51,264 nt of DNA. Origin: Acidimicrobiia bacterium (GTDB lineage Bacteria > Actinomycetota > Acidimicrobiia > Spongiisociales > ZC4RG35). Location of the stretch: contig WHUC01000003.1 in assembly GCA_009377435.1 (NCBI GenBank), positions 1-51,264 of the forward strand, written 5' to 3'. Of this stretch, positions 13,901 to 50,479 are shown piece after piece. Made by a program: the position numbers and the translations under genes. The notes below the pieces were generated by a model. The model was not told the origin of the DNA. It searched no databases and saw only the letters and a list, made by a program, of their open reading frames with translations. Position 1 is the stretch's first letter. The number at the start of each line of letters is the position of its first letter.

Positions 13901-15673
13901 CTCGATAACCTCGAGACCGAGGTTCTCCAAGGCGGGCATCAGGTCGGAGAGGGCGCTCCTACCGCCCTTGCGATAGAGGGCGATACGGGTGAGAGGGTCC
14001 TCCTCGCTGCTGTCGGATTGGACTCCGACCCGGAAGGTGTCCTCGGAGTGCATCAGCTTGTCGAGAGACACGATGTCGCCGGTGACGACCTGGAGCGGGG
14101 TTTGCGAGGCGTAGTAACCGGGGAAGCGCTCGCTCCACTCGTTGGCAATCCGATTCGCCTCCAGAGTCCCCATGTCCGACTCGAGCGCATCCACCAGACG
14201 GTCGCGCCATGGTCTCGCCAGGGCGATGACGTCGCGCTCCAGGGAATCCTGGTCCACCTCGGGCACGACATCGTCCTCTATCCACACCGTGAAATGGATC
14301 TGGGCCGACTCCCCCTCACCGAGGGCGAGGTGGTAGTCGACGGGCCCTCCCCCGAAGCGCTCGGTGATCATGCCCTGGATCTGTTTCCGGAGGGTGGCGT
14401 TGAACCGATCACGGGGCATGCTCACCAGGATCGAGATGCTCCGCTTGAGTAGGTCCCGACGCACAAAGACCTTGACCTGTTGGCGCTCTTCCAATGTGAG
14501 GAGCCCCAACAGTTCGGCACGCAACGCTTCGGTGGGTGCCGCGAAGAGATCGTGTTTGCTGAACCCCTCGAAGATCTGGATGACGGCCTTGTGGTCGTGG
14601 GATCCCTCGATGAGGTCCTCGGCGACGAGGATCTGAGCGAGTTTTCGGCGCAATACGGGTGTCTTCGAGGCCGGCTCCATGTAGGCCCGCGAGGTGTACA
14701 ACCCGAGCATCCGGGCCTCACCGACCGTCCGGCCATCGCCATCGAGTAGACGGACCCCCACATAATCCATCCGGGATCGCCGGTGCACCGTCGACAGGGA
14801 ATTGGTCTTGGTGATGACGATCAGGTCTCCCCCTTCGAAGCGGGCGGCGAGTTCCTGGGGAAGATCGGAGAGGAGGACCGGCCGGGCCATCCGGGAGCCC
14901 TTGTCGTCGCGCAGGATCCCCAGCCCCGACCCGGGGACCACCGATACCGCCCGTCCCCCGGGGGTGTCCTGGATCTGATACTCGCGGAACCCGAGGAACA
15001 CGAAGTTGTCGTCGCGGAGCCAGTTGAGGAAGTCGATAGCCTCCCCGACGTCGGCCTCGGAATGATGGGCGCCGGCGATCCTCGCCAGGTCGATCATCCG
15101 GTCGATCCTCCCCGCCATGGCATGGAAGTCATCGACGGTGGCCCGGACGTCGTGGAGGATGTCGAACACCTTCTGCTCGAGGGATTCCTTCTCCGCTGCG
15201 GTGAGGAATCGGTCGAGCACGTAATGCTGGATGGACTCACGGTGTGTGGTCTGACGGGCGGAACGGACCTTGACCAGTTCCCCGTCGGTTCGCTCGATCC
15301 CCACGACGGGATGGACCAGCTTCACCACCTCGAGGTCACGCGCCTGGATCTCGTTGATCACCGAATCGAGCGAGAAAGGTGAGTCGGGTAGGGCGATCTC
15401 GATGACCGTGCCCGTCGACTCGTAACCGTGGGAGGCCGTGGTCGGGTCGAAAACCCTGACCATCACCTCGTACGGCCGCTGTTGGATAAAGTCGAAGATG
15501 GACTCCACCTCGGCGGCGGCATCGGGCGCGGGACCGATGGAATCGGCGGGGACCCGGCGGCAGTAGACCCGGGCGAAATCGAGTAGTGATTCGTTGCCCG
15601 GATTCGCTTCGGAGAGTCGGGCAACTATCTGATCGATGAGGTCGGGAGCTTCGGTCGTCGGTTCTGTTGCCAC
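10910..15673 (-). CDS. gdh: Large NAD-specific glutamate dehydrogenase (GDH2 type, about 1590 aa)
   Basis: GIHLRGGPVARGGLR, KNAVIVPTGAKGGF, VVAADKGTA, GIGDMGGDVFGNG and NTDFIDNSGGV; start GTG 15673 or 15679 after TACGAT. Confidence 0.96.
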   Translation of the reverse strand: MATEPTTEAPDLIDQIVARLSEANPGNESLLDFARVYCRRVPADSIGPAPDAAAEVESIFDFIQQRPYEVMVRVFDPTTASHGYESTGTVIEIALPDSPFSLDSVINEIQARDLEVVKLVHPVVGIERTDGELVKVRSARQTTHRESIQHYVLDRFLTAAEKESLEQKVFDILHDVRATVDDFHAMAGRIDRMIDLARIAGAHHSEADVGEAIDFLNWLRDDNFVFLGFREYQIQDTPGGRAVSVVPGSGLGILRDDKGSRMARPVLLSDLPQELAARFEGGDLIVITKTNSLSTVHRRSRMDYVGVRLLDGDGRTVGEARMLGLYTSRAYMEPASKTPVLRRKLAQILVAEDLIEGSHDHKAVIQIFEGFSKHDLFAAPTEALRAELLGLLTLEERQQVKVFVRRDLLKRSISILVSMPRDRFNATLRKQIQGMITERFGGGPVDYHLALGEGESAQIHFTVWIEDDVVPEVDQDSLERDVIALARPWRDRLVDALESDMGTLEANRIANEWSERFPGYYASQTPLQVVTGDIVSLDKLMHSEDTFRVGVQSDSSEEDPLTRIALYRKGGRSALSDLMPALENLGLEVIEEVPTRLKGDQPAFIHDFGVRFCGEPLEIEESGERIRDTLASVWNGEISSDPLQRLVVTAGLDHSHVALLQAYRTYWKRVAPVFTVSYTNETLITYPEIAADLIELFRARFEPHSDLDEEMIRKRITVALDEVKKLDHDRILRSMLALIDATLRTNYYQKDREVLSFKFRSADVPDAPAPRPLAEIFVIGRNLEGIHLRGGPVARGGLRHSDRQEDYRSEVLGLMKAQITKNAVIVPTGAKGGFVINRLPQDRAERAEVIESQYRAYIAALLDVTDNRVGDDVVHPSDVVIHDGEDPYLVVAADKGTARFSDVANEIAVSRGFWLGDAFASGGSTGYDHKALGITARGAWESLKRHFMEMGVDPATDEFTAVGIGDMGGDVFGNGMLCSDRIRLIAAFNHMHVFIDPNPDAASSFEERKRLFHLAGSTWADYGSDLISTGGGVFDRSAKRVEISPEAQTALGTDQSTFTPDQLIAVILKAPVDLLWNGGIGTYVKASHESHADAEDRTNDSVRVNGSDLRTRVLVEGGNLGLTQHGRIEYAQAGGRINTDFIDNSGGVDASDREVNLKILLGRAEEAGDLDRPERNAVIGEVVDEVVEKILYDNYLQAQMLSQEELGARAQVEALEDLMVELEEEGIVDRRLDGLPDTEEMSERSAAGKRMTRPELSVLLVDAKRSVYDALVTSDLPDDPYFLNDLRDYFPSVVVERFGDHVEKFPLRRELAATILANKVVNDLGMTFVSQLGARTGATIPEIVRSERIAREVVDATRYWDRLEALFGKMDTTRWIELMDEADLLVASVTRWYLTQSPEVSLSESVADVKLFREIEDAIDGLGTERWRAGLVERVDALVDEGFDESVARRHVISPVLLHVPGAIAVAKRHDRPVTEVFDVFLHLGAAVGLARLNRMARKLEVTGRWARWARQSIEDALINLRYELADRVVARSEPGSSMHDAVHDFLESRGDVTNRVARVVHSLSSAPQDDVSPLLVAVRQLRNLLD

Positions 15674-15791
15674 GTCCACGAATCGTAACCAATCCCCCCG
15701 CGTCGATCTACTCGGTTCCACCCCAGACGAGTGTGCAACAAGACCTAACGAGGACGACCCACAACACACTCGACCCGGGACGGCCCTACCG

Positions 15792-17192
15792 CTAGCGGTC
15801 GACGTCACCCATGATGGGATCGAGGGAGGCGATGGTGGCGACCGTGTCGGCAACGAGGGAGTCGGCCATCATGATGGGCAGGCCTTGAATGTTGTAGAAC
15901 GACGGGGCGCGGGTGTGCATCCGCCAGGGTTTCCCACCCCCGGTCGAGACCAGATAGCAGCCGAGCTCACCCCGGGGTGACTCGACCGCCGCATAGGTCT
16001 CACCCTCGGGCACCCGGAACCCCTCGGTGAAGAGTTTGAAGTGGTGGATCAGGGCCTCCATCGACTCATTGATGCGGCCCCGTGGCGGAGGGGCAACCTT
16101 GCGGTCACCGGTCATGTAATCGCCCTTGGGCATGGTGTCGGTGACCTGTTTGACGATATTCATGGACTGGTAGATCTCGTCGACACGGATCCGGTAGCGA
16201 TCGTATACGTCACCGTTCTCGCCGGTGATCACATCGAACTCGTACTGTTCGATGCCGGAATACGGGTTCGACTTGCGGAGATCCCACTCCAGGCCCGTTG
16301 CCCGCAGCGTCGGACCCGTCAGCCCGTAGGCGAGGGCCTCCTCGGTGGTCACCACACCGACATTCTGCGTCCGTTCCACCCAGATGGGGTTCTTCTCGAG
16401 AATGGCGTCGTACTGGTCGAGACGACGGGGAAGGGTGTCGAGGATCTCGGTAACGTCGGCCCGCCATCCGGGGGGCAGATCGGCGGCGACGCCACCGGGA
16501 CGGATGTAGTTGTGGTTCATCCGGAGGCCGGTTGCCTTCTCGAAGAAGTCGAGGATCTGTTCGCGGTCACGGAACCCGTACAACATCATCGATATGGCGC
16601 CGACATCCATGGCGTTGGTGGCGAGGGCGACAAGATGCGAACTGATCCGATTGAGTTCGGTCATCAGGATCCGGATCGCCTGGGCCCGTGGTGGGATGTC
16701 GGTTCCGAGAAGCCTCTCCACCGCCAAGGAGTAACACAGTTCGTTGTGGAAGGGAGCGAGGTAGTCCATCCGGGTGACGTTGGTGCCACCCTGCATGAAC
16801 ATCAGATCCTCGGCGGTCTTCTCCATGCCTGTGTGGAGATAGCCGATGATGGGCTTGGTGCGGCGGATGATCTCACCCTCGAGCTCGATCTGGAGACGGA
16901 GGACACCGTGGGTCGACGGGTGTTGGGGGCCCATGTTGACGATCATCCTCTCGTCGTCGCCCTGGGGCTGCTCCTCGATGAAGTAGTCGTCGTCGACGAC
17001 CGAGCCCAGTTGTTCGGCGAGCTCACGCTCGGTGTCGTCGGGTTGGAACTCCTGGGACGCCTCGTCGGTGTAGTCCGGTTCCTCGGTTCCGGTCAGCCAG
17101 ACATCCACGGTGCGACGCCGCGGCCGCTCCCCGGTCTGTGCGGCCGCTTCCCCGGTGAGAGCCGTCTGGTCGGGTTCGTTGGTCCGGGTCAC
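15792..17192 (-). CDS. nuoD: NADH-quinone oxidoreductase subunit D
   Basis: NMGPQHPSTHGVLRL, GYLHTGMEK and C-terminal DPIMGDVDR. Confidence 0.97.
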   Translation of the reverse strand: MTRTNEPDQTALTGEAAAQTGERPRRRTVDVWLTGTEEPDYTDEASQEFQPDDTERELAEQLGSVVDDDYFIEEQPQGDDERMIVNMGPQHPSTHGVLRLQIELEGEIIRRTKPIIGYLHTGMEKTAEDLMFMQGGTNVTRMDYLAPFHNELCYSLAVERLLGTDIPPRAQAIRILMTELNRISSHLVALATNAMDVGAISMMLYGFRDREQILDFFEKATGLRMNHNYIRPGGVAADLPPGWRADVTEILDTLPRRLDQYDAILEKNPIWVERTQNVGVVTTEEALAYGLTGPTLRATGLEWDLRKSNPYSGIEQYEFDVITGENGDVYDRYRIRVDEIYQSMNIVKQVTDTMPKGDYMTGDRKVAPPPRGRINESMEALIHHFKLFTEGFRVPEGETYAAVESPRGELGCYLVSTGGGKPWRMHTRAPSFYNIQGLPIMMADSLVADTVATIASLDPIMGDVDR

Positions 17193-17194
17193 GC

Positions 17195-17824
17195 TCAGAT
17201 CACCTCGTGCGAGCCCTTGAACTGAACGGGGACGCCACCCACGTCGAAGTCCTTGCGGAGGGGATATCCGGTCCAGTCGTCGGGCATGAGGATTCGGGTG
17301 AGGTCGGGGTGGTCCTCGAAGATGATCCCGAACATGTCGTACACCTCGCGCTCGGGGAAGTTCGCCCCCGGGTACACCGGCACCAGTGAGGGCACCGTGA
17401 GGTCGTCACGGGGGACACCGGCGATGATCCGCACCCGTTGGTTTCGGGACACGCTGAGAAGCGAAACGACGACGTCGTAGCGGACCCGACGCTCCCGGAA
17501 CCAGTCGACGGCCGTGATGTCGGCGCACACTTCGAAACCGGCCTCCCTGGCCGCCTCGGCCACCGTCCGCAGCGAGTCCTTGGGTAGCCGGATAACCGTC
17601 TGGCCAACCGAGTCCTCGATCGAGGCGCCCTCGATGCCCTCGATGAGGGACACCAGGCCGGGATCGACCGTGGGTTCGTCACCGTCCCGATCGGCCGATC
17701 CCACCCCGCCGTTGGTCTCGCGGTCGAACTCGATGCCCTCCTCGGCGTTGTCCCCGGTCTCGGCGGGTGTGCGCGGGGCGTCGACCATGTCCTTGCCGAC
17801 CCGGTCGGATCCGTCGACACTCAC
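17195..17824 (-). CDS. nuoC: NADH-quinone oxidoreductase subunit C
   Basis: [31 protein letters not shown]; GTGA overlap with the nuoB stop; acidic N-terminal extension. Confidence 0.94.
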
Positions 17825-18291
17825 GATGCGATCTCGCCGCTCATGATCTTGTCGTGGAGGGTGAGGATCCCGTGCATCAGGGACGTCGGGCCCGGTGGGC
17901 ACCCGGGAACGTAGATGTCGACGGGTACCACCTGATCGACACCCTGGACGAGGGCATAGTTGTTGAACATGCCACCGGTCGAGGCGCACGCTCCCATCGA
18001 GACGACCCATTTCGGTTCGGGCATCTGGTCGTATACCTGGCGGAGCACCGGGGCCATCTTCTGGCTGACCCGTCCGGCGACGATCATCAAATCGGCCTGG
18101 CGGGGTGATGCCCGGAAGACCTCCATGCCGAAGCGTGCCGAGTCGTAATGGGCGGTGCCCATCGCCATCATCTCGATGGCACAGCAGGCCAAACCGAAGG
18201 TCATAGGGAACATCGACCTGGTGCGGGCCCACGACGCCAGCTTGTCGATTCTGGCGGTGAGGAAACCGGGGGGGTTGGTGGGGTGGGGCAC
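17821..18291 (-). CDS. nuoB: NADH-quinone oxidoreductase subunit B
   Basis: [25 protein letters not shown] and YVPGCPP; start taken at GTG 18291 ([12 protein letters not shown]). Confidence 0.95.
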
Positions 18292-21076: not shown

Positions 21077-21430
21077 CTACTCGCCTTCCTGGGCCTTCTC
21101 GTACTGGTTGAGCGCCACCACGAAGGCGACGAACACGATGAACGAGACCACCATGTAGGTGATGGGGATGATCCGGATCTCAAATGGGTTGAGACCCTCG
21201 ATCTCGACGGGACGCGGCCCACGGGGTGCGTAGAGCACGTACAGAAGCGAGCCGATGGTCATCCATCCGCCCACGGCGGCACCGGTGACCAGGAACCCCA
21301 GCTTCTTGCCGAGATTGGTGTAGTTGAGCAGATAGATGGTCCCGTAGAACACCAGGATGGCGGCGGCGAACAGGATGATCCCGGTGACGAACAGGTTCGC
21401 CGAGAGCAGGCTCCGCATCAGCTCGCGCAC
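21077..21430 (-). CDS. Small membrane protein (about 3 TM), last gene of the Rieske/cytochrome b operon
   Basis: 117-aa hydrophobic ORF; removing the MITE places its GTG directly after the cytochrome c stop. Confidence 0.8.
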   Translation of the reverse strand: MRELMRSLLSANLFVTGIILFAAAILVFYGTIYLLNYTNLGKKLGFLVTGAAVGGWMTIGSLLYVLYAPRGPRPVEIEGLNPFEIRIIPITYMVVSFIVFVAFVVALNQYEKAQEGE

Positions 21431-21433
21431 TTA

Positions 21434-21628
21434 GTGCTCCCCACCGTAAATACGGTCGCATGTTTCGGCGAGCCAGAGGCGTCGCTCGCCAGCGGCTCTC
21501 CCGAGCCGCCCCCACCTCCCACCCGGCCGCAGGACGAAGACGCACCCGGTGCGGTGCTTCGAGGACGAGGACGCCGCGAGCGGCGTCACTGGCCGTTGAA
21601 ACGTCAGCGTAATTGCGGTGGGGTGCAC
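21434..21628. mobile_element. 195-bp MITE with a TTA target-site duplication
   Basis: TIRs GTGCTCCCCACCGTAAATACG / GTGCACCCCACCGCAATTACG (18/21); TTA at 21431-21433 and 21629-21631; 58-bp core identical to 4732-4789. Confidence 0.8.
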
Positions 21629-23671
21629 TTAGTCCCCCGTCCCGTTCAGATTGCCGCCACGGAGATACCGGGCGAGCATCTCGAGGTCGGCCTGGCTGAG
21701 GAGACCTCCGAAAGCCGGCATCCTGCCGGTGCCCATTCCATTGAGGCCATAGGGCTCGTCGACGACCGATCCGTTGGTGAGGAAGTCGACGAGAAGATCC
21801 GCCTCATCTCCCTGCGGGGCCTCTCCGAACTGGACGACCGGTCGGCCGTGCCACAACGCCGGACCGAGCGCACCGGATCCGGGCTCGCTCGAATACGGAA
21901 CACCAGCGGACCATCCGGCGGTATGACAACGTGCGCAGTACCCGTTGAACAGTCCAACGGCGCGGTCGGCGTCCTCGACGTTGCCGTCGAAGGCGGCGTC
22001 CGCGACGCCCTGGATATCAATATTCCACGGCTCCTCCTCGGCGGCCTGGCGGAGGAAGGTGAGACCTTCCTCCGCCGGGGGAAGAACCCGCTCGATGTTC
22101 TGAGCGGTGACTTCGAGGTTGGTGGCCGACGACTCGAGGGCACTGACAAATGTGTTTGCCGCCTCCGCATCCGGCTGACCTGAGCTTTCCGGGCCGGTCG
22201 GGTCTAACGTCACCGGGGGGATGTCGGCGGGTCGGGTGGCGGTATCGGCGTCGCTGAGGACCTGGCTGAGCTGCTGCTCCCCCGAATTGGAGAGCCCGTC
22301 GCCGTCGTTGTCCATGCCCCCGTCGAGGACGGTCTGGGCCTCGGTGGCGAGGTCGGCGCCACCCCCACCACCTTCGCCGGGCGCGGTGGTCTCGGTGGTT
22401 GCTCCGCCCGCGGCGGTGGTGGCGGGAGCGTCACCCGCCACGGTCGTCTCCGTGGACTCACCACCGGCTGCTGTGGTGGTCGGGCCTGCGGCGTCACCGC
22501 CGTCAGCGGGTGCGGGGAGGGCGGCGATGAACGCCTCTGCGCTCTCGGGATCGGTGACTTCGCCGGGGACATCGATGCCCTGCGCCTCCGCCGTGTCTAC
22601 CAGCTCATTGAGTTGTCTTATAGCGCCAGCGGACAGGCCGTCGTCCATCATGGCGTCATCGAGGGCAGCCGAGAACTCCGGGGCGAAGGGTCCGAGGATT
22701 GGGTCCGACTCGGCGGCGGACCTCAGCCGGCCGAGGGAGTCTTGTGCGGTCGTTGCGTCATCGGCACCCTCGACAGATTGTGCGGCCTCCGGATCGAACT
22801 GGACGGGCTCGACCACCCGGAAGAGGGCAATGGCCTCCTCCGAGAGCGCGGTCAGCTCGGTCTCGGCGGTATCGGAGACACCGTCACCATCGGTGTCGAT
22901 CTGGTCGACCGAAGCGTCGAGAATGGCCCGGCCCCGGCCCGCCAATTCACGAACCCCGGGAGCGAGCTCCCCGGACTGCTCGATGTCTTCGACAACCTGG
23001 GCCTGCTCGACAATGGCGCTCTGCACCGCATCGTCGGCCCCGGCGAGCTTTTGCTGGGCCGCGTCGATCTGGGGTTCGATCTCCCCAAGGACACTCGCCT
23101 GCTCGACCTGGATAGAGCGCAGATAGAGGAGGAGATCATCGACCCCGTCCTCATTGAGGGGGCCACCACCATCGAGACCCCACGGCGGCATCGGTGTGTT
23201 GGCCCGGCCATACGTGACCCAATAGCGAATCTCGTCCTCTTCGTAACGGAGGAACACGTCGTCGATCGACGGGGCCTCCCAGACGACGGTCACGTTTGAT
23301 CTCGGGTCGACGAACTCTGCGACACCGCCGCTTCCGCCCGGGCCGTGGCAACTGGCGCAATCCAACTCCACCCAGTGCTCCTCACCACGGGTCAGGGCCT
23401 GCTCGTTGAACTCCGCTGCGAAACCCTCCTGGCGGTCGTTCTCGCTGAGGAAATAGAGGGGGATGGCCACGGCGAGAAAGGCGGACAACAGGGCCGCCGC
23501 CTTCTGCCATCCCTCGAGACGCCGGGTCTCCAACAGCTCATCGGTCCCTCCGGGGGAGAGGTTGGAGGCGACCTCCTCGGGGCCGCGCCTCCGGATGGCG
23601 GACACGGCGAGGAACGCCAACCAGGCGACACCGGCGATCACCGCGAGGGTGAGGACGAGACTCGAGCTCAC
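21629..23671 (-). CDS. Large membrane-anchored dihaem cytochrome c of the Rieske/cytochrome b complex
   Basis: Two N-terminal TM helices; CASCH..PMPPW and CARCH..RMPAF; two DxDGDG motifs; start GTG 23671 or 23698. Confidence 0.88.
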   Translation of the reverse strand: MSSSLVLTLAVIAGVAWLAFLAVSAIRRRGPEEVASNLSPGGTDELLETRRLEGWQKAAALLSAFLAVAIPLYFLSENDRQEGFAAEFNEQALTRGEEHWVELDCASCHGPGGSGGVAEFVDPRSNVTVVWEAPSIDDVFLRYEEDEIRYWVTYGRANTPMPPWGLDGGGPLNEDGVDDLLLYLRSIQVEQASVLGEIEPQIDAAQQKLAGADDAVQSAIVEQAQVVEDIEQSGELAPGVRELAGRGRAILDASVDQIDTDGDGVSDTAETELTALSEEAIALFRVVEPVQFDPEAAQSVEGADDATTAQDSLGRLRSAAESDPILGPFAPEFSAALDDAMMDDGLSAGAIRQLNELVDTAEAQGIDVPGEVTDPESAEAFIAALPAPADGGDAAGPTTTAAGGESTETTVAGDAPATTAAGGATTETTAPGEGGGGGADLATEAQTVLDGGMDNDGDGLSNSGEQQLSQVLSDADTATRPADIPPVTLDPTGPESSGQPDAEAANTFVSALESSATNLEVTAQNIERVLPPAEEGLTFLRQAAEEEPWNIDIQGVADAAFDGNVEDADRAVGLFNGYCARCHTAGWSAGVPYSSEPGSGALGPALWHGRPVVQFGEAPQGDEADLLVDFLTNGSVVDEPYGLNGMGTGRMPAFGGLLSQADLEMLARYLRGGNLNGTGD

Positions 23672-23675
23672 GGGA

Positions 23676-24551
23676 TCAAAATCCGATGCACGAGGCACCC
23701 TGGGGGTATTGGACGATCGGCGAGGCGGCGCGTGGGGTCTGCACTATGGAACCCGTCCGCACGACCAGATCGCCATCGCGCTCCTCGACCACGAAACGGT
23801 CGAGGTTGCGTGGTGCCGGACCGGCGGAATACTCGCCGACCATGTCGTACTTGGAACCGTGACAGGGGCACTCGAAACCCTGCGAGCTCTCGCACCACGG
23901 CACCGTGCAGCCGAGATGGACACAACGCTGATAGAGGGCCATCAACCCACCGGCGACGACACCTACGTCGGAGAACTGCTCCCCGAGATCGTCCGGTGCC
24001 GGAACTATGTATCCCCGCGCCTCGGGGATGTAGACCGGGGTGACGGTCCGATCTGGGTTGAACACCTCGGTCCGAAGATCGTTGATCGCACCGGCCACCA
24101 CATCGGCGCCGAAACCGCCGGACAGCTTGGGCCAGAGCATCGCCAGCGACGCCAGGCTGAAGAGTCCCAGATAGGAGCCGAATGCGGTTCCTATGGCCCG
24201 ATTGAAGAACTGGCGTCGGGTGACACCGGCCTCCTCCGGGGACACCTCGACGACACGCTGGGTTTCGACCACCTCGACCGCATCACTGGCCACCGGGGCC
24301 GGTACGGGGGCCTCCTCCTCGGTCTCGGGGACCTCCTCCACCAAGGTCGGGGTTCCGGCCTGGATGGGTTCCAACCGAACCCCGGCGCGGGATCTGTCGG
24401 CTTGGCGGGTCTCGGCGCTCACCCCCGCGGTGGCGTCGGGCTCGGGCCGGGGCTCGGGTCGGGAGCGCCGGAAGGCGACGACGAACGCCCCGGCCGCAGC
24501 CGTGATGGCGACGACGGCCACGCCGATGAGGGCCCATGCGGTGGCGTCCAT
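23676..24551 (-). CDS. Rieske [2Fe-2S] subunit of menaquinol:cytochrome c reductase
   Basis: CVHLGC and CPCHGSKY boxes, GPAPRNL, internal twin-arginine TRRQFF before a TM helix. Confidence 0.95.
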   Translation of the reverse strand: MDATAWALIGVAVVAITAAAGAFVVAFRRSRPEPRPEPDATAGVSAETRQADRSRAGVRLEPIQAGTPTLVEEVPETEEEAPVPAPVASDAVEVVETQRVVEVSPEEAGVTRRQFFNRAIGTAFGSYLGLFSLASLAMLWPKLSGGFGADVVAGAINDLRTEVFNPDRTVTPVYIPEARGYIVPAPDDLGEQFSDVGVVAGGLMALYQRCVHLGCTVPWCESSQGFECPCHGSKYDMVGEYSAGPAPRNLDRFVVEERDGDLVVRTGSIVQTPRAASPIVQYPQGASCIGF

Positions 24552-25696
24552 TATTCCTCACCACCCTCGAAATGGACCCAGTCCTTCAGATCGTCAAAGA
24601 AGATCCCATCCGACCAGGGATAGGCGAAGTTGAAGCCCTCCCCCCGGAAGAGCACACCGATGATGGTCAGCGAAGCGGCGCCGGTGAGGAAGATGCTGAA
24701 CAGCAAGATGGCGAACTTCCGCTGCGAGGGTCTTGTCGATGGGTTGCGATCGATGTAGGGAATCAGCATGAACCCGACTAAACCGATGATGGTGGGGACG
24801 GTGACACCAGCGATCTGTGGGTCGAAATAGCTGAGTAGCTCCTGGAGCCCGAGGAAATACCAGGGGGCCTTCGACGGGTTGGGGGTCACATTGAAGTTGG
24901 CCGGTTCGAGAAGTGGGGCGGCGAGCGCCACCGACATCACCACGAGTAGCACAGTCATCGCCATCAGGGCCGAGAACTCGGCGATCATGAGATGGGGCCA
25001 GGTGTTGACCTTGTCGGTCGGCTCGGCCTTGACGTCTTGTATGGCGCGTGCCTTGACAACGGTGAGAAGACGTTGGGTCCGCACCCCCTCCGGGGTCCCG
25101 GCGGCGGGCGCAACCGGTCGGGGATCGACCATGGCGGCGACACGCCCATTGCCGGCGCCGCCTTCCTGGTGCCCGTCGGATGACGGGGGGGGCCCCTCTG
25201 ATGCGGGGTCGGCGACCGCCACCGCGGCAGGCTCCTCCTCGGCGGCAGGCTCCCCCTCGGCGGCAGGCTCCCCCTCGGCGGCAGGCTCCCCCTCGGCGGC
25301 AGGCTCCTCCTCGGCGGCAGGCTCCTCCTCGGCGGCAGGCTCCTCCTCGGCGGCAGGCTCCTCCTCGGCGGCAGGCTCCTCCTCGGCGGCAGGCTCCTCC
25401 TCGGCGGGAGGCTCGTCTGCGGTGGACTCGTCTGACTCCGGGACCGCTGGTTTGGATGGTTCGAAGGCGGGGGGCTTGGAAATGGTGACACCACCACCCT
25501 CACCGGTGTCCGCCGGTGTCGCCGTCTCAGGGGTGGCGTCGGCAGCCTCGGGCGCCGCGGTGTCGCCGACGGCGTCGTCACTCGCCGGTGGAGCCTCCCC
25601 CTTCATCTCGGCGAGCACCTGCTCCACGGGAAGATCGAGTGCCTTGGCCTTGGCCTCGGCCGACCGACGGAGAAGATCTTCGGGGATCTCAGCCAT
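24551..25696 (-). CDS. Cytochrome b subunit IV-like (C-terminal half of split cytochrome b) with a long acidic N-terminal extension
   Basis: WPHL, TPNPSKAPWYFLGLQELL and PYIDRNPS..P..RK motifs; three TM helices. Confidence 0.9.
   Translation of the reverse strand: MAEIPEDLLRRSAEAKAKALDLPVEQVLAEMKGEAPPASDDAVGDTAAPEAADATPETATPADTGEGGGVTISKPPAFEPSKPAVPESDESTADEPPAEEEPAAEEEPAAEEEPAAEEEPAAEEEPAAEEEPAAEGEPAAEGEPAAEGEPAAEEEPAAVAVADPASEGPPPSSDGHQEGGAGNGRVAAMVDPRPVAPAAGTPEGVRTQRLLTVVKARAIQDVKAEPTDKVNTWPHLMIAEFSALMAMTVLLVVMSVALAAPLLEPANFNVTPNPSKAPWYFLGLQELLSYFDPQIAGVTVPTIIGLVGFMLIPYIDRNPSTRPSQRKFAILLFSIFLTGAASLTIIGVLFRGEGFNFAYPWSDGIFFDDLKDWVHFEGGEE
25223..25402. repeat. In-frame 18-bp tandem repeat, 10 units encoding E(E/G)EPAA
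   Basis: Ten consecutive units of CGGCAGGCTCC(T/C)CCTCGG inside the subunit IV N-terminal linker. Confidence 0.95.
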
Positions 25697-25744
25697 GTCT
25701 CATCCCTTCTTCGGCCGCCTGATAGGGAACGCTATGGTGTCCCA

Positions 25745-26512
25745 TCACAATGGGCCCGAGATGCCGCCGTCCTTGCGGACCCTCCAGAAGTGCACCGACA
25801 GGAAGATGACGAGCACGAAGGGGAGGAACAGGACGTGGAGAACATACCACCGCAACAAGGTGTTGGCCGTCACCTCGGAACCGGACAGCAAGGCGAACTT
25901 GACCTGATCGCCGATCACAGGGACGAAGCCGGCCATGTTGGTCCCCACCGTGACGGCCCACAGGGCGAGCTGATCCCAAGGCAGCAGATAGCCGGTGAAA
26001 GAGAGCAGCAGGGTGAGGAGGAGCAGAACGACCCCAACCACCCAGTTGAACTCGCGTGGTGGTTTGTAGGCGCCGTGGTAGAAGACACGGCTCATATGAA
26101 GGAACACGGTGAGCACCATGAGATGGGCACCCCACCGGTGCATGTTCCTCAGCAGGGTCCCGAAGGCGACGTTGGTGGAAAGTGCCTGGATGTCGGCGTA
26201 GGCGGTGGCCTCCGACGGTGTGTAGTAGAACATCAGGAAGATGCCCGTGATGGTCAACAGTATGAACAGGAAGAAGGTGAGACCACCAAGGCAGAGGGTG
26301 TAGGACAGACGAACACCGTGCCTCTTCACCTTCACGGGATGGAGGTGATAGAGCACGTTGTTCATGACCACGTACGAACGGTTTCTCGGGCTATCGGCAT
26401 AGCCCTTCTTGAACGGCGATCCGGGCCGCAGCACAGAGGCGACGAACTGAGAGTTGGCGAGCTTGTCGCTCGCTTCCCGCACCCGTTCTCTCACAGGGAC
26501 CTTGTCAGCCAC
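25745..26512 (-). CDS. Cytochrome b6-like N-terminal cytochrome b subunit
   Basis: CLGG haem-ci motif, [32 protein letters not shown]-x14-H in helix D, ends GGISGPL; GGAGG RBS before GTG 26512. Confidence 0.95.
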
Positions 26513-26520
26513 ACATCCTC

Positions 26521-26970
26521 CTACCAGCGCATCCCGTATGAATATCCGTTCTTGAAGTCTCGTTGACCCGTGTCGAGATCCCAAGGTCGTCGGTCGAGCC
26601 CCATCTCCTCCGCCTGGGCGGCGAGGGAGCCTTCGAACTTACCCAACGTGATCACGTTCGTGGGGCACCGGTCGATGCACAGGGCGCACCGGGTGCACTC
26701 GTTCTCGTCGACCACGAAGAATCCGTAGTTCTGCGGATCGTCAACGGGATGATCGACCAGGATGGCCTCATCGATGGCGTCCAGGCTGAGATACATAATG
26801 CACTTCCACGGACAGATGTCGACACAGCCCTCACAGAGGATGCACTCGGCCTGGTCGATGTGGAGGAACTGCTTGGGTCGGAGCTTGTCCTTGAAGTAAT
26901 CCCCGTCCACCGGTGCGAGTTGATAGTCATCCCGGAAAGGCGGTGTCTCGTCGACGACTCCTCGTGGCAT
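26521..26970 (-). CDS. 2x[4Fe-4S] ferredoxin-like protein
   Basis: [12 protein letters not shown] and [12 protein letters not shown]; no signal peptide; ATG 26970 just after the upstream stop. Confidence 0.92.
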
Positions 26971-26971
26971 A

Positions 26972-27571
26972 TCAGCGATCTCCCGAGGTAAGGGGACGGC
27001 CGTAGGGAGAGCTCTTCGGCTCCGGCTCGGGTGGGGGAGTACCGCCACCGGCCAGATCCTGGATCTTGTAGGCGAACAACGCCCCCGCTCCCAGCATCCC
27101 CAGGTTGTAGGTCGCCGAGACCATGTCCTTGAGTGCGGCGAAGCTGAGGGCGACCTCGTTACCGAGCACAAGGAAGGGTGGGATGGTCAGGGCGGACCGT
27201 TGCGGTGACCAGTCGAGGTCGGTGGTGGCGAGGGTGAGCCACTCCGAGGGGACGATCCCGAAGATAATCACCAGTTCCACCCAGACGAGAAAGGCCGCGG
27301 TCGCCGCCAGCGCCCATGTCATCGGACGACCAAGGACCAGGGCTATGCCGGCACCCGCCAGCACCATCTGGGAGGCGCCGAAGACGAATAGATAGGCCAA
27401 ACCCTTCGACAACCAGCCCCGGGGGATGAGTCCGAGGCTATCGGGGTTGTCGATCTGGGCGGAATAGTGGACCCAGACCACCCCGACGGCGAGGAGGAAC
27501 AGCCCACCGGCGATCATGGACCAACCGATCCTGCGTCGCTGCGTCTCGTCTAGTTGTGCCAACCGATACAT
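26972..27571 (-). CDS. Membrane protein (about 4 TM), first gene of the Rieske/cytochrome b operon
   Basis: 199-aa hydrophobic ORF tightly coupled to the ferredoxin gene. Confidence 0.8.
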   Translation of the reverse strand: MYRLAQLDETQRRRIGWSMIAGGLFLLAVGVVWVHYSAQIDNPDSLGLIPRGWLSKGLAYLFVFGASQMVLAGAGIALVLGRPMTWALAATAAFLVWVELVIIFGIVPSEWLTLATTDLDWSPQRSALTIPPFLVLGNEVALSFAALKDMVSATYNLGMLGAGALFAYKIQDLAGGGTPPPEPEPKSSPYGRPLTSGDR

Positions 27572-27814
27572 GCGGTGGCGCTCCGGGATAGCCGATCGTT
27601 CCTACGGGTTGTTTGTACCACAGTCACCCTATCGCTGAGAATCGCGATTGTCGGGTCGGATCCGAAATCGGATGCGGCACAATACACCCCTATTGGGATG
27701 ACCGAACGACGGCTTTCTCTTCTAGTTGTGATGTGGTTCCCTTCCCGCTCCCGCATCTTCTATCCTCCGGCCCCTAGGAGGCCGGGAGGCGAAACGACGA
27801 GGAGAACGGAATTC

Positions 27815-29275
27815 GTGGCTGACGCTCCGACCACAACCCCGCAACACCCGGTACTCGAGGGAGCAGACGAGGCCTCGCGTCTCCATCTGGTGGCGTCGAT
27901 CCCCTTCCTGGGATTGGGTGCCCTCCTGGTGGTCACCTCGTTGTTCGCCATGGTCTTCCCCTCGGCCCTCCCCCTGCTCTATGGACGGATCCGCTCACTC
28001 GGGATGGCGGCGCTGATGTTGGGATGGTTGACCAATGTCCTCGTCGGGGGCACGTATTACGTCCTCCCCCGTCTCACCGGGGCACGTCTCGGCTCGGAGA
28101 GGTTGGCCCGTCTCGGATTTCTGGCGATCAACGCGGCCGCCGTGGGGGGGATGGTCCTGGTGGCCATCGGTCTGGGTGACGGTCGCGAGCCGTTGGCGTT
28201 CCCCTGGTACGCCGACATCGTTGTCCTGGGCGCCCTGCTGATCCCGGCAATCGTGATGATCATGACCCTGAGCGACCGAGAGGAGAAGACCTCGTTCCCC
28301 ACCGTGTGGTTCACGGGTGCCGGTCTGGCGATCCTGCCCCTCTCCTATGCCGTGGGGAACATCCCCGGTCTCGGTCCCATCCCGTCGACCCTGGGTGATC
28401 TCCATTTCGTCGGGACCTTCCCCGTGGGGGTAATGCTCACCATCGGTGTTGGGCTGACGTACTTCGCCCTCGTCAGGGAGTACGACATCCCCCTCGCCTC
28501 GCGGAGTCTGGCCCAGGTCGGTCTCTGGTCATTCGTGTTCGCCTCGGGTTGGATCGGCATCGCCCAGATCGCCCAGGGGCCGGTCCCGGGCTGGCTCGGT
28601 GGTGTCACCGCCCTGCTCGGTCTCGCCCTCCCCGTCGGAATGGTGGCGACCGCGGCGAATCTCGTGGTGACACTCGAAGACGAACTCGCCGGGATCCGTG
28701 ATCGCCCCGTGGCCTTGAGTGCGGTCTGGGGAATCGGTCTCGGTGTCGTGATCGGAGCCATCGCCGCCTTCGGGTCGCTGCGTTCGGCCGCGGGTCTGGT
28801 CGCCCTCACCCCGTTTTGGGAGGGCATCCTGATCGGACTGCTGCTCGGGGTGGGGAGCCTGCTCGTCGCCTCGTTCACCTATGAGGCGTACCCCCACGTC
28901 CTCGGTAGGGCCGTCGCCTCCCCATCTCTGGCCAGGACCCACGTGCGCCTCACCGTGTTTGGAATCGGTGGGGCATCCATCGCGTTGGCCATCGGCGGGA
29001 TCGCCTCCGGTTACGCCTGGTCGGGTGGGGCCTTCACCAGCGCCTACCAGCCATTCGGGGAGGGTTGGGCCCAGGCATCATCGGCGGGGCGGTTGTTCGC
29101 AGGCATCGCCTTGCTGTTGGCCCTGGTAGGTCTGGTAGGTATCGGTGCCCTCATGGTCAACCAGTTCCAGACGGTGACCCAGGGACATGCCGTCGCCCAG
29201 GAGATCCTCGTGACCAAGGTGGCCCCGGAGGATGAGGACCTCCCCGAGGACGTAAGCGAGGACAACGATGAGTGA
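27815..29275 (+). CDS. cbb3-type oxidase subunit I (CcoN)-like protein without haem/Cu ligand histidines
   Basis: Collinear with CcoN landmarks (YGRIR, YYVLPRLTG..L.SERLA, GRE....PW, S.SLA.V..W, VP.W, GR...S..LA..H) over about 12 TM helices; GAGGAG RBS before GTG 27815. Confidence 0.85.
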   Translation: MADAPTTTPQHPVLEGADEASRLHLVASIPFLGLGALLVVTSLFAMVFPSALPLLYGRIRSLGMAALMLGWLTNVLVGGTYYVLPRLTGARLGSERLARLGFLAINAAAVGGMVLVAIGLGDGREPLAFPWYADIVVLGALLIPAIVMIMTLSDREEKTSFPTVWFTGAGLAILPLSYAVGNIPGLGPIPSTLGDLHFVGTFPVGVMLTIGVGLTYFALVREYDIPLASRSLAQVGLWSFVFASGWIGIAQIAQGPVPGWLGGVTALLGLALPVGMVATAANLVVTLEDELAGIRDRPVALSAVWGIGLGVVIGAIAAFGSLRSAAGLVALTPFWEGILIGLLLGVGSLLVASFTYEAYPHVLGRAVASPSLARTHVRLTVFGIGGASIALAIGGIASGYAWSGGAFTSAYQPFGEGWAQASSAGRLFAGIALLLALVGLVGIGALMVNQFQTVTQGHAVAQEILVTKVAPEDEDLPEDVSEDNDE

Positions 29276-29580
29276 TCTCGCAGCCGCCGCCGAAGCGGTC
29301 GGGGCCCCCGAGGAGATGGTCCAGCGATCGGCCGAGGCCCGCGCCCAGGCCGACGGGACCAGTGTCGAGGAGGTGCTGGCGGCCTGGGCGGGGGGTGGGG
29401 GCGGCTCGGCCGCACCGGCTGAGTCCGAGGCCGACGAGGCCGCCCCCGAAACCCCGCCCGAGGAGACCGCGGAGACACCGGCCGAGGGAGCACCCGAGGA
29501 AGAACCCGCCGAACAACCCGACACCACACCCAGCGCCGCCCCGGCCCCCGCCGCGGCGGCAGAACCCGCGGCGGCGGCAC
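29266..29580 (+). repeat. Direct repeat, copy 1 (copy 2 at about 30077-30380)
   Basis: First ~125 bp differ at about 6 positions; the linker-coding part aligns with indels. Confidence 0.9.
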
Positions 29581-30086
29581 CCTCACAGGTGGAAGAAGCG
29601 GCGGTGACGGCGATTCCCATCCTCGAGAGCGACAAGGCCGATCAACCCCTCCTGGTCGTCCTCGGTGCGGTGGCCGTCTTCGCCCTCACCGCATTGCTTG
29701 GATTCGTGTTCCCCTCCCTTCCCGCCGACTCCGACCAGGTGGTCACCTCGAACATCGCCTTCTCCGAGAGCGCCATCGAGGGTCGCACCCTCTATCAGCA
29801 GCTCGACTGCGCCTCGTGTCACACCCAGATGGTGCGACCGGTCGTCGCCGACGTCGCACTAGGTCCGGTCACACTCGAGGACACCAATCAGGTCCTCGGT
29901 GTCCGCAGGATCGGTCCCGATCTGAGTTACGTCGGGTCCCGACTGGACCCGGCCGCCATCAGGGCGATCATCACGGGTGGGGGGAACCATCCCGCGGTCT
30001 CCCTCGCCGAGGACGATCTGGACGCCCTCACCAGCTATCTCACCGAATCCCGGTCCGAGAACGTGGAGACTGACGCCGATGAGTGA
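29268..30086 (+). CDS. CcoO-like monohaem cytochrome c with an N-terminal tag and acidic linker
   Basis: EGRTLYQQLDCASCHTQMVRP and GVRRIGPDLSYVG match CcoO motifs; one TM helix. Confidence 0.88.
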   Translation: MSDLAAAAEAVGAPEEMVQRSAEARAQADGTSVEEVLAAWAGGGGGSAAPAESEADEAAPETPPEETAETPAEGAPEEEPAEQPDTTPSAAPAPAAAAEPAAAAPSQVEEAAVTAIPILESDKADQPLLVVLGAVAVFALTALLGFVFPSLPADSDQVVTSNIAFSESAIEGRTLYQQLDCASCHTQMVRPVVADVALGPVTLEDTNQVLGVRRIGPDLSYVGSRLDPAAIRAIITGGGNHPAVSLAEDDLDALTSYLTESRSENVETDADE

Positions 30087-31107
30087 TCTCTCAGCAGCCG
30101 CCGAAGCGGTCGGGGCCCCCGAGGCGATGGTCCAGCGATCGGCCGAGGCCCGCGCCCAGGCCGACGGGACCAGTGTCGAAGAGGTGTTGGCGGCCTGGGC
30201 CGGGGGCGGTACCGCCGCAGGGGCGGCGCCCCCGACCGAAGAGGCTCCCGAAGCCCCCACCGAGGAGACCGCGGAGACACCCGCCGAGGAAGCACCCGAG
30301 GAAGCACCCGCCGAACAACCCGACGCCGCACCGAGCGAGGCCCCAGCGCCCGCCGCGGCAGAACCGGCCGCCGCCGCCATCGCCCCCAGGGCCGCCCCAC
30401 CCGCACCGGAGACCGTCACGCCCGACGAAGCCGCCAACTACCCGGTGGTGATCACCGTTCCCACCGCGGGCATCAAGGAGCGCACCAACTACGCGGTGCC
30501 GACGTGGCTCGTCGCCCTGTTCATGCTGGTGCCCCTGTTCGGGCTGCTCGGCCTCGCCGGTGGCGCCGAGACGGTCTGCAACGAGGCGACGGAGCTCCAG
30601 ATGGACCGCCAGACGGGGAACCTCGTCAATTGTGACGGAACCGCCTTCGAGGGACGGGAGGCCGCCGGTGGCGGGGCGGACTTCATCGCCATCGGCGAGG
30701 GGATCTATCCCGAGTGCGCCAGTTGTCATGGCCCCAACGGTGAGGGAGGTGTCGGTCCCGCATTGGCACCGGTGACCGGGACCTTTGGCTCGTGCACCGA
30801 CCACATCGCCTGGGTCGCCGCGGGCACATCGGGGTTCCAGGCCCAGGGTCTGGGGACCTATGGGGACTCCGGTAAACCGGTGGGGGGCGGAGGCAACATG
30901 CCCGGGTTCGAGGGGACACTCGACGCCGAGCAGATGGCCTCGGTGGTGGCGTTCGAACGCGTCCGCTTCGGGGGGGAGAACCCCGAGGCGGCGTTGGTCG
31001 CCTGTGGTCTCGCCGAGGAGGAGACCACCGAAGGTGGGGAGGAGGGCGCCGAGGAAGCCGAGGGTGGCGACGGCGCCACCGTGACCACGGCCGGTTCCGG
31101 GGGCTGA
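30079..31107 (+). CDS. Membrane-anchored monohaem cytochrome c with the same N-terminal tag
   Basis: CASCHGPNGEGGVGPAL..NMPGF; one TM helix; ATG 30079 overlaps the upstream stop. Confidence 0.9.
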   Translation: MSDLSAAAEAVGAPEAMVQRSAEARAQADGTSVEEVLAAWAGGGTAAGAAPPTEEAPEAPTEETAETPAEEAPEEAPAEQPDAAPSEAPAPAAAEPAAAAIAPRAAPPAPETVTPDEAANYPVVITVPTAGIKERTNYAVPTWLVALFMLVPLFGLLGLAGGAETVCNEATELQMDRQTGNLVNCDGTAFEGREAAGGGADFIAIGEGIYPECASCHGPNGEGGVGPALAPVTGTFGSCTDHIAWVAAGTSGFQAQGLGTYGDSGKPVGGGGNMPGFEGTLDAEQMASVVAFERVRFGGENPEAALVACGLAEEETTEGGEEGAEEAEGGDGATVTTAGSGG

Positions 31108-31143
31108 TCACTCCCGGGTGATGGGCACTAGCCTTCATGATCT

Positions 31144-31236
31144 ATGCGTCCGGCAACATCCCTCGTCATAGTCATCCTCATGGCGGTCATCGTGATCGCC
31201 GGCGCCATCAAGGCTGTCGGCCTGCTTTTCCCGTGA
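31144..31236 (+). CDS. 30-aa single-TM small protein (MRPATSLVIVILMAVIVIAGAIKAVGLLFP)
   Basis: Uninterrupted hydrophobic helix, GC-rich third codon positions, 37 nt downstream of the cytochrome c gene. Confidence 0.6.
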   Translation: MRPATSLVIVILMAVIVIAGAIKAVGLLFP

Positions 31237-49556: not shown

Positions 49557-50333
49557 CTACTGGTCGGCCACCCATCGACCGACCTGGATGACAAACTCGT
49601 CGAGGTCGCCGAGACGATCGAGATTCTCCACGACCCGGTCATCGTCGACATCGGCGTACCGGTGGACCAGGATGTTCCGGAACCCGGAAGCCGCTCCGAG
49701 CCGCTCGGCAACGGCGGTGTCGATGACGTCGTTTCTCGCCAGTTCGGCAAAGGCGTCGGCATTGGTCTCGGGAGTGCTCCAACCTTCTGACACCGATAAA
49801 TGGTGGGCCACCCGGGCGGCGCCCTCGATGGCGGTGATGAACCGATACTTGATGGCGTCGAGGTCGGTCTCGGTTAATGACGAACCCACGAATCGTCCCA
49901 GGACGTCACGGTCCCGGCGGACCCGATCGAGGAGTCGGAGGACGCGTTCGGCGTCAACCATCGGTGACTCTGCCTCCAGCCACTCCCGTTGGCGGCGACG
50001 GAGATGGGGGATCTCGTCCAAATAGATGAACCGGGTGTCGGCCTGCCAGGCCACCCGCCGCGGGGGGTCGTCATCGAACAGCACCCGGCCCTCGAGGGCC
50101 ACCCGCCCGGCGAGCCAGAGCGGTGCGGTGTCGAGAACGGTGAGGTCGACTCCCGCAGGGAGGCCGACGTCCCACCGATCCGGCGGGTCCTGTCCCCACC
50201 AGGCGGCCACATCGAGATCGGAATCCGGTCGCTCGGTGCCACCAGCCCGGCTTCCGAACACGAAGGCGAACCGGGAGTCGGACTTTCGCAGTGTGGCAGC
50301 GACGGTTGACTCCAGGTCGGCTGTCGGTTCCAT
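49557..50333 (-). CDS. MntA-like minimal nucleotidyltransferase fused in frame to a HepT-like (DUF86) HEPN RNase
   Basis: FGSRA......SDLDVA in the N-terminal half and RNILVHRY in the C-terminal half with no stop between; internal ATG 49961 with GGAGG; TACCCT -10 box 6 nt before ATG 50333. Confidence 0.9.
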   Translation of the reverse strand: MEPTADLESTVAATLRKSDSRFAFVFGSRAGGTERPDSDLDVAAWWGQDPPDRWDVGLPAGVDLTVLDTAPLWLAGRVALEGRVLFDDDPPRRVAWQADTRFIYLDEIPHLRRRQREWLEAESPMVDAERVLRLLDRVRRDRDVLGRFVGSSLTETDLDAIKYRFITAIEGAARVAHHLSVSEGWSTPETNADAFAELARNDVIDTAVAERLGAASGFRNILVHRYADVDDDRVVENLDRLGDLDEFVIQVGRWVADQ

Positions 50334-50479
50334 GGGCTCAGGGTACCGAGCCAGTCCCCCCCGATCGTGCCATAGCGAACGGCGCCGCTCCCCGAAGCCT
50401 CGGTGCGACAGAGCCCCGAACCGTGGGCCGGCGGTGACGGCAGGCGTGAGCGCGAGCCCTAATGGGTGTGTAACTGGGT

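Follow-up and report, generated by a model that had tools for sequence, protein, structure and literature searches.

What is left for an oxidase fold to do when all six of its cofactor ligands have been replaced, and why should its gene lie back to back with an operon for complex III? This question is raised by positions 21077-31236 of a 51,264-nt stretch of DNA from an Acidimicrobiia bacterium (contig WHUC01000003.1; we call the whole stretch the window), in which the open reading frames (ORFs) form two compact divergent operons. The seven genes of the minus strand (g1 to g7) encode a split cytochrome b complex, hereafter the b6c complex, together with a ferredoxin-like protein, and the four of the plus strand (p1 to p4) form a module headed by a protein that resembles CcoN of cbb3-type oxidases. 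The ORFs, together with Pfam and NCBIfam searches, place every gene where a first-pass annotation of this DNA had listed it (Table 1), and the intergenic region, given there as about 240 bp, measures 243 bp if p1 starts at its most likely start codon, the GTG at 27815, which is preceded by AGGAGAA. The reading that we tentatively favour, at somewhat under an even chance, is that the module serves as a non-catalytic scaffold and c-cytochrome relay between complex III and the caa3-type oxidases of the cell, held in place by a short N-terminal tag that subunit IV of the b6c complex, p2 and p3 have in common.

The first-pass annotation had called p1 a His-less CcoN, which is right for the ligands and wrong for the protein. 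In an alignment to solved CcoN, the six positions that hold the ligands of haem b, haem b3 and CuB read G, T, A and Q in place of the HH pair, and I and I; p1 contains six His, none of them at a ligand position. Two control proteins (P0112 and P0120) display all six His in the same alignment. Among 78 homologues drawn from a collection of 5.8 billion proteins, His is absent from five of the six columns throughout and occupies the sixth (H347) in two members; one homologue has no His anywhere. Gly, Ala, Thr, Val or Ile stand in these columns, varying from member to member, and the haem b ligand column H347 holds Tyr in 60 of the 78, with Ile in the window protein. The AlphaFold2 model of p1 (predicted local distance difference test score, pLDDT, 92.5; predicted template modelling score 0.92) has as its top Foldseek matches CcoN chains, including chains from bc1-cbb3 supercomplexes, with template modelling scores of 0.80-0.88 at 18-21% identity. 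At the same time p1 fails the ccoN equivalog TIGR00780, with 75.9 bits vs a cut-off of 583. Thus p1 keeps the 12-helix fold but, judged from its sequence, could bind neither haem b, haem b3 nor CuB, and since all six ligands are replaced, the reduction of O2 or NO at a binuclear centre would be impossible. Loop motifs are nearly invariant in the family, and so are the charged residues R86, R155, E157, R230, R365 and E463, which the topology would place at the ends of loops, outside the membrane core.

The window protein has many relatives of this kind. A profile search of 1.84 billion representative proteins gave 511 matches at E<=1e-30; the six His are missing altogether from 152 of the 212 long rows and complete in 24. 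In a FastTree phylogeny of these 212 rows, p1 falls inside a well-supported clade of 79 rows, all of them ligand-less, and the tree needs at least 5-6 changes of the six-His state, with many branches poorly supported. This suggests several independent losses of the ligands, and we make no claim as to their order or to a donor. The nearest His-bearing cluster that carries a name belongs to Anaerolineae, and the taxonomy of the other ligand-less relatives offers leads only, to Verrucomicrobiota and Actinomycetota. Of note, the ligand-less proteins P0020, P0026, P0031 and P0074 all bear the public name "cbb3-type cytochrome c oxidase subunit I". In sister families of our genome samples (f2 and f3; we number families f, loci L and genomes G) and in L092 of genome G058, open frames of 620-930 residues hold the CcoN-like match; L092 also has a CcoO-like match after it, within the same stretch. 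This suggests CcoN-CcoO fusions, as among database representatives of 620-970 residues.

The gene for p1 is under strong purifying selection. In 49 pairs with a synonymous divergence (dS) of 0.03-0.5, the median ratio of nonsynonymous to synonymous divergence (dN/dS) is 0.063 (range, 0.031-0.28); b6 gives 0-0.04 over these 49 pairs. On this median we reject a pseudogene reading of the plus-strand genes. The loci used below come from a scan of one genome per species, which gave 142 matching stretches, the best 80 of which were taken. These 80 all derive from metagenome-assembled genomes (MAGs), most of them labelled Acidimicrobiia and the rest placed under other or less specific names (Acidobacteriota, Actinomycetota or "uncultured bacterium", among others); the related loci that were fetched come from MAGs or from genomes without a species name, with no named isolate among them. 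The frames are intact in 80 of 80. In genome G154 (C11:9131-10471), a TGA lies within the CcoN-like match and may be a sequencing error or a real inactivation.

In p2, an N-terminal tag (29268-29414) is followed by an acidic linker of 82 residues, one transmembrane (TM) helix and a haem domain with one CxxCH, and the FixO match spans only positions 8-112 of the 219 in the profile. The same order recurs in p3 (tag at 30079-30225, linker of 97 residues, one TM helix, haem domain with one CxxCH), which stands at the position of CcoP and fails the test for it, having a single CxxCH and no significant match to TIGR00782. Start and stop codons overlap by 8 nt at both p1/p2 and p2/p3. A p2 equivalent is found in 79 of the 80 loci and a p3 equivalent in 78, and 137 of 152 tagged plus-strand ORFs hold exactly one CxxCH; the other 15 have none, many of them at contig ends. 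The peptide p4 matched no NCBIfam family. Its motif occurs once in its own genome and, in an all-frame scan, in 42 of 80 loci, in 39 of them on the module strand some 450-500 nt past p3; it lies within 260-400 nt of the p3 stop at 3 of 67 loci, the window locus included, and usually further downstream.

What the minus strand encodes is the usual complex III of the class Acidimicrobiia, a split-type menaquinol:cytochrome c oxidoreductase of the APWY clade. Cytochrome b is divided over two adjacent ORFs (PF00033 and PF00032); the four-helix b6 ends in GISGPL like solved b6, and subunit IV has three TM helices and the Qo motif APWY (KAPWYF in the translation). The closest solved relatives of g3 are cytochromes b6 of cyanobacteria and chloroplasts (1e-47), actinobacterial QcrB reaching only 1e-22, and its four haem bL/bH His, as well as the Cys of haem ci (CLGG), align with those of solved b6 (7r0w, 6rqf); haem ci itself lies beyond what a sequence can prove. 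The first-pass annotation had taken qcrCAB with an unsplit cytochrome b as the actinobacterial standard, which stands for other actinobacteria and fails for this class: in a sample of 201 Acidimicrobiia genomes, 195 give a b6-type match. (A further 151 genomes sample the phylum; in either sample, "not found" is not absence.) In the window's own genome this b6 is the only cytochrome b found. Nor is the complex a special partner of the module, as had been proposed, for the same seven genes occur in the same order, ferredoxin included, without tags or module in the four genomes inspected from other Acidimicrobiia families. Finally, the respiratory system had been put forward as a candidate undescribed one, and the sequence clade of its b6-type complex already has a description: as set out in a portion of PMC4122944, Kao and Hunte defined the APWY clade of split cytochromes b in 2014 from several phyla, the listing there includes one Acidimicrobidae strain (Ilumatobacter) and Rubrobacteridae, and no member is given as characterised at that time.

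Individual subunits of the complex deserve comment. The start codon of g3 is uncertain, family matches beginning near residue 73 of the ORF. For the Rieske protein, the top NCBIfam match is PetC of b6f, under its cut-off. In g6, an acidic linker of about 400 residues separates the two haem domains, and 55 of 59 well-covered orthologues have two CxxCH. The ferredoxin-like protein g2 is among the best-conserved proteins of the cluster, with 79-90% identity over 76 loci; it is about 50% identical in module-free Acidimicrobiia and has 1086 homologues at E<=1e-10. Having neither a TM segment nor a signal sequence, it is presumably cytoplasmic. The first gene of the operon, g1, had been described as encoding a 4-TM protein: a membrane protein it is, with three strong segments in a crude hydropathy scan instead of four. 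The last, g7, is conserved after g6 in 58 of 80 loci at 63-81% identity and also occurs in other Acidimicrobiia families. Neither g1 nor g7 matched a Pfam or NCBIfam family above its cut-off. Two local features of the sequence may be added: the linker of subunit IV (window 24985-25400) is a run of near-identical EEPAA(E) units, and the insert of g6 (window 22000-23100) contains two DxDGDG stretches and a weak Pfam match (E 0.006) to TSP3-type calcium-binding repeats.

Although the complex does without the module elsewhere, the module keeps close to the complex. The co-conservation of the two operons, for which the first-pass annotation had called for a neighbourhood survey, is borne out by that survey: in 76 of the 76 loci with upstream DNA, the CcoN-like gene adjoins the first two genes of the divergent b6c operon, g1 thus being kept in each, and the other four loci have less than 410 nt upstream. 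All seven b6c genes are present in 58 of 80 loci, the contig ending first in the other 22. Of the 201 genomes in the class sample, 75 give a match to the CcoN-like profile at E<=1e-30: every one of the 20 from the window's family, the majority of its order, 30 of the 47 in a family with 1-Mb genomes (weak matches) and two single genomes; the profile also matches 24 of the 151 phylum genomes. Eight loci were fetched from other classes of the phylum, five ligand-less and three with all six His. Four of the five ligand-less loci lie 5-6.5 kb from a ferredoxin-b6 operon, and none of the three six-His loci is near one. This recurrence indicates that the link between a dead CcoN and complex III is older and wider than the window's lineage. 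The four loci in question (L102, L103, L105 and L106, of families f49 and f51) carry ligand-less CcoN-like and CcoO-like genes without tags at that distance from a ferredoxin-b6-subunit IV-Rieske operon, and in L102 the cytochrome c maturation genes CcmF and CcmC-like lie between module and operon.

The second link between the two operons is the tag. That proteins of both strands begin with the same motif was already reported from the translations, and a hidden Markov model (HMM) trained on the copies of subunit IV, p2 and p3 confirms it, retrieving exactly these three and one more in the whole genome (E 1e-27 to 2e-9), with the next match at E 0.28. The consensus is MSDLxAAAxAxGxPExLVxRSAEARAxAxGxxVExVLAAWAGG, with a P, an R, an S and two A that do not vary in any of 54 copies. 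In the AlphaFold2 model, this domain of about 45 residues forms three short helices, and most of residues 1-43 have a pLDDT >90. Between each tag and the first TM helix lies an Ala/Glu/Pro-rich linker of 71-200 residues, whose net charge ranges from -10 to -39; in subunit IV, the linker reaches 200 residues and a charge of -39. From the known topologies of PetD and CcoO, the tags would be cytoplasmic. The tag is present on all three proteins in each of the 80 loci wherever DNA exists, and subunit IV lacks it in the four module-free genomes inspected. Among the 21 genomes of the window's family (own included), 19 have exactly four copies and the other two have three. In the class sample it occurs in 98 of 201 genomes, and in the phylum sample in 5 of 151, all five in the window's order. 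Tag and module are both present in f1-f5, f7, f8 and f12, and neither was found in f9, f10, f14, f15 and f17 (0 of 54 genomes); the exceptions are f6, f11 (weak matches), f13 and f16. Tandem tags occur on subunit IV in 5 of 80 loci (L007, L015, L029, L040 and L072), and in G013 (C9:17500-18159, family f2) three tags stand in one 527-residue ORF beside the module.

Known families shed little light on the tag. A Pfam search gave nothing at E<=10 except a chance match to MIF (0.21), a Foldseek search of the model against the PDB gave nothing below E=2, with designed helical repeats only, and we found no description of the tag in the literature. A complex prediction of the four tags (those of p2, p3 and the fourth tagged protein, with subunit IV as the partner) scored 0.00 vs a mark of 0.32, which weighs neither way.

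The fourth copy is what points beyond the locus. It belongs to a polytopic protein of 421 residues, of no known family and without an NCBIfam match, encoded on contig C17 about 0.4 kb from a ctaE-ctaD-ctaC gene set whose ctaC includes cytochrome c. Three of four further genomes have its orthologue 1.5-3.6 kb from ctaCDE, so that with its own genome the proximity holds in four of five (0.4-3.6 kb), which fits the suggestion in the first-pass annotation of a link to an oxidase encoded elsewhere. Elsewhere the genome does encode two caa3-type oxidase sets whose subunit II is fused to a cytochrome c. Besides these two fusions and the genes of the window, a single further c-type cytochrome domain turned up, of class I (PF13442, 52 bits), in a 105-residue ORF on contig C223 (3935-4156, minus strand).

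We therefore read the predicted absence of haem b, haem b3 and CuB from p1, the two caa3 sets with their fused cytochrome c and the dihaem cytochrome c of the b6c complex as arguments for a scaffold. The module would descend from a cbb3-type oxidase operon, retaining N, O, a cytochrome c in place of P and a small peptide. The dead CcoN-like protein would be a membrane scaffold that carries two membrane-anchored monohaem c cytochromes with their haems on the periplasmic side, and electrons would move sideways, from the dihaem cytochrome c of the b6c complex through a relay of p2 and p3 to the cytochrome c domains on caa3 subunit II. From the cytoplasmic side, the tags may tether subunit IV, p2, p3 and the caa3-linked polytopic protein into one physical assembly. 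The ferredoxin probably docks on the cytoplasmic face of b6 near haem bH/ci and could pass electrons between the low-potential chain and the cytoplasm. Proposals of this kind exist for b6f and for anammox Rieske/cytochrome b complexes, and we place the ferredoxin by analogy with them, together with its operon membership and its lack of a TM or export signal. A bolder version joins all of these elements in a tethered respirasome, in which the first cofactor-less member of the haem-copper superfamily would act as a hub for c cytochromes, tag leashes would couple complex III, the hub and the caa3-linked protein, and the 2x[4Fe-4S] subunit would be a cytoplasmic electron gate at haem ci; we regard this version as doubtful, and clearly less probable than the scaffold and relay by themselves.

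Several observations weigh against the scaffold and relay. The cytochrome c of C223 could be an ordinary shuttle, in which case p2 and p3 are not the sole candidate carriers. The module is dispensable for the class: in most of the Acidimicrobiia families sampled, the same b6c operon occurs without it. The CcoN-like protein also changes much faster than the b6c core, being about 40% identical over loci where b6 and the ferredoxin are 80-90% identical; over all pairs with dS 0.1-1.5 the median dN/dS is 0.38 for p1 vs 0.09 for b6, a comparison in which dS is saturated and on which we do not rely. Tag and module can be parted in both directions: ligand-less CcoN-like genes stand without tags in f13, f16, f49, f51 and f44, so that the module does not need the tag, and f6 has tags with no CcoN-like match at E<=1e-30. 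The fourth tagged gene has no oxidase genes nearby in one of the five genomes. Lastly, the window's genome (G000) is 88% complete, and its single cytochrome b is a count of what was found.

Four other explanations have to be set beside it. Could the module be a separate periplasm-facing redox device, an entry or exit for electrons of extracellular or periplasmic substrates or a haem-c peroxidase or detoxifier, that is merely co-regulated with complex III? Only c-type haems facing the periplasm remain in it, some lineages carry it as an accessory trait, another small cytochrome c is available for ordinary shuttling, and in other classes the module lies beside cytochrome c maturation genes and not beside oxidase genes. 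Nevertheless, Pfam and NCBIfam reveal no catalytic domain besides class I cytochrome c, a tag common to subunit IV and the caa3-near protein points to the respiratory chain, and adjacency to the b6c operon recurs in two separate lineages, so we consider such a device unlikely. We give about the same low weight to a reading of the tag as a signal for targeting or assembly, recognised by a chaperone, an insertase or a quality-control system that coordinates the biogenesis of a set of respiratory membrane proteins, with the CcoN-like protein as an assembly platform. Its strictly N-terminal place ahead of 71-200 disordered residues and the first TM helix, its varying copy number (tandem in some loci, threefold in the G013 ORF) and the tag-free modules of other lineages would all suit a signal; a folded domain with invariant P, R, S, A and A before an acidic linker is unlike known signal peptides, and no co-occurring partner gene was identified, though no systematic search for one was made.

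The two remaining explanations turn on p1 itself. That it binds cofactors through ligands other than His, and is still an enzyme or an ion translocator, would account for strong purifying selection on a complete 12-helix fold and perhaps for the Tyr in the H347 column of most members. The window protein, however, has Ile there, the six columns vary among the residues listed above, the nearly invariant charged residues would sit at loop ends rather than in the membrane core, and the score lies far below that expected of ccoN; we hold this to be quite improbable. Still further down, and hardly credible, comes the notion that the plus-strand operon is a functionless, decaying remnant of cbb3. Loss of all catalytic ligands, the faster evolution of p1 relative to the b6c core and the TGA in the G154 match are what could be said for it, against the low dN/dS, intact frames at every locus, matches in 142 species-level genomes, near-invariant loop motifs and the CxxCH kept in the partner proteins.

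The scaffold and relay can be compared with several known systems. One of the closest is the C-family haem-copper oxidase cbb3, CcoNOQP (3mk7, 8smr, 6xkw, 9g83), from which the 12-helix N fold and the order of N, O, a further cytochrome c and a small TM peptide are familiar; a CcoO-like p2 that passes the FixO cut-off directly follows the ccoN-like gene, some loop motifs are common to p1 and real CcoN, and, according to the titles of solved entries, supercomplexes of cbb3 with bc1 are known. The module differs in the replacement of the six ligands, in a subunit at the P position with one haem instead of two, and in the cytoplasmic tag and acidic linker of the O and P equivalents. In the actinobacterial QcrCAB-CtaCDEF (bcc-aa3) supercomplex, a respiratory chain of Gram-positive bacteria, electrons go straight from a dihaem cytochrome c to an aa3-type oxidase; entries such as 7qhm and 9gy6 appear among the Foldseek matches of the p1 model. 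That supercomplex is not known to include a CcoN-like protein or the tag, and QcrB is unlike g3, whose gene is split and which scores 115.1 bits vs a cut-off of 500 for NF050120. With the APWY clade, b6f and the Firmicutes-type b6c, the window shares the split into b6 and subunit IV and an APWY Qo motif; the class operon adds the 2x[4Fe-4S] gene and two genes for small membrane proteins, the window has a dihaem cytochrome c with its linker of some 400 residues, and subunit IV is tagged in the window's order.

E2 chains of 2-oxoacid dehydrogenases carry a small helical peripheral-subunit-binding domain on long, flexible, Ala/Pro-rich linkers, an arrangement that the tag resembles in architecture only; as far as tested, the two are not homologous. 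Indeed, a derivation of the tag from this domain was rejected, because PF02817 finds the genome's three E2 domains and no tags, and a profile-profile comparison returns a probability of 0.3%. As for g3, its best-scoring named family is ExtP of the Geobacter extHIJKLMNOPQS cluster (NF040969, 308 vs 290 bits). In the account of that cluster in part of PMC5877670, a Rieske protein (ExtO), a cytochrome b (ExtP) and a membrane protein (ExtQ) are encoded beside multihaem cytochromes, the porin-like ExtI and the rhodanese-like ExtH, with no ferredoxin mentioned. Multihaem, porin-like and rhodanese-like genes are absent here, so the name "selenite/tellurite reduction" should not be transferred; since the NF040969 cut-off is passed in 162 of 201 class genomes, it reports a b6-type sequence in this setting and not the ext function.

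As far as we have found, three elements appear to be new to the literature: the ligand-less CcoN family, its fixed pairing with b6c and the shared cytoplasmic tag. We found no description of a ligand-less CcoN, although the supplementary tables of PMC4122944 and PMC11214002 may list related sequences, nor any of a ferredoxin gene as a fixed operon member or subunit of an actinobacterial b6c complex. In a passage of PMC11214002, a broad survey of the haem-copper oxidases, gNOR is named as the first in the superfamily to have so much as one of its active-site His replaced, which makes a large, selected family with all six replaced unexpected. Such a family is a natural test of the oxidase fold without its chemistry. 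It also bears on annotation, as metagenome papers take cbb3 annotations in MAGs as a capacity for high-affinity oxygen respiration (for example, part of PMC8357290, whose genes may or may not belong to the ligand-less family), an inference that would be wrong for Acidimicrobiia with this module. The ferredoxin-bearing, APWY-type b6c, an uncharacterised complex, is the only complex III found in the whole of a widespread class, and the tag offers a compact, testable handle on how respiratory complexes come together. If the tethered respirasome were true, it would represent a new principle of assembly for the respiratory chain in bacteria without a pool of soluble cytochrome c.

Table 1. Features of the two divergent operons, in window coordinates
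Feature	Coordinates	Strand	Basis
g7, small membrane protein, 117 aa	21077..21430	-	ORF; last b6c-operon gene
g6, membrane-anchored dihaem cytochrome c, 689 aa	21629..23698	-	PF13442 1.4e-15; CxxCH at residues 114 and 588
g5, Rieske iron-sulfur protein, 291 aa	23676..24551	-	PF00355 32.9 bits (cut-off 20.3); CVHLGC and CPCHGS in translation
g4, subunit IV (PetD-like), 381 aa	24551..25696	-	PF00032 1.7e-07; tag ~25568-25696, HMM 3e-18
g3, cytochrome b6	25745..26584	-	PF00033 1.2e-47; NF040969 308 bits (cut-off 290)
g2, 2x[4Fe-4S] ferredoxin-like protein, 149 aa	26521..26970	-	Fer4, 1.6e-10
g1, polytopic membrane protein, 199 aa	26972..27571	-	ORF; first b6c-operon gene
Divergent intergenic region, 243 bp	27572..27814	.	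sequence read
p1, CcoN-like 12-TM protein, 486 aa	27815..29275	+	PF00115 80.6 bits (cut-off 34.8)
p2, CcoO-like monohaem cytochrome c, 272 aa	29268..30086	+	FixO (PF02433) 34.1 bits (cut-off 29.6); tag 1e-27
p3, membrane-anchored monohaem cytochrome c at CcoP position, 342 aa	30079..31107	+	PF00034 4e-07; tag 5.5e-27
p4, single-TM peptide, 30 residues, motif RPATxxV	31144..31236	+	motif scan

The surroundings of the locus include other respiratory genes. As the first-pass annotation had noted, ctaB lies at the end of the window, where the heme o synthase model NF003349 scores 340 bits vs a cut-off of 246. NuoD and NuoC of complex I are encoded at window 15792-18232 on the minus strand, just upstream of the region, so that complex I, complex III, the CcoN-like module and ctaB all fall within one 51-kb stretch. 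The window also contains an ORF of 1647 residues (10910-15853, minus strand) and, at 49557-50681 on the minus strand, a single ORF with matches to a nucleotidyltransferase (Polbeta) and to a HepT-like RNase, which resembles a fused or adjacent MNT/HepT toxin-antitoxin pair.

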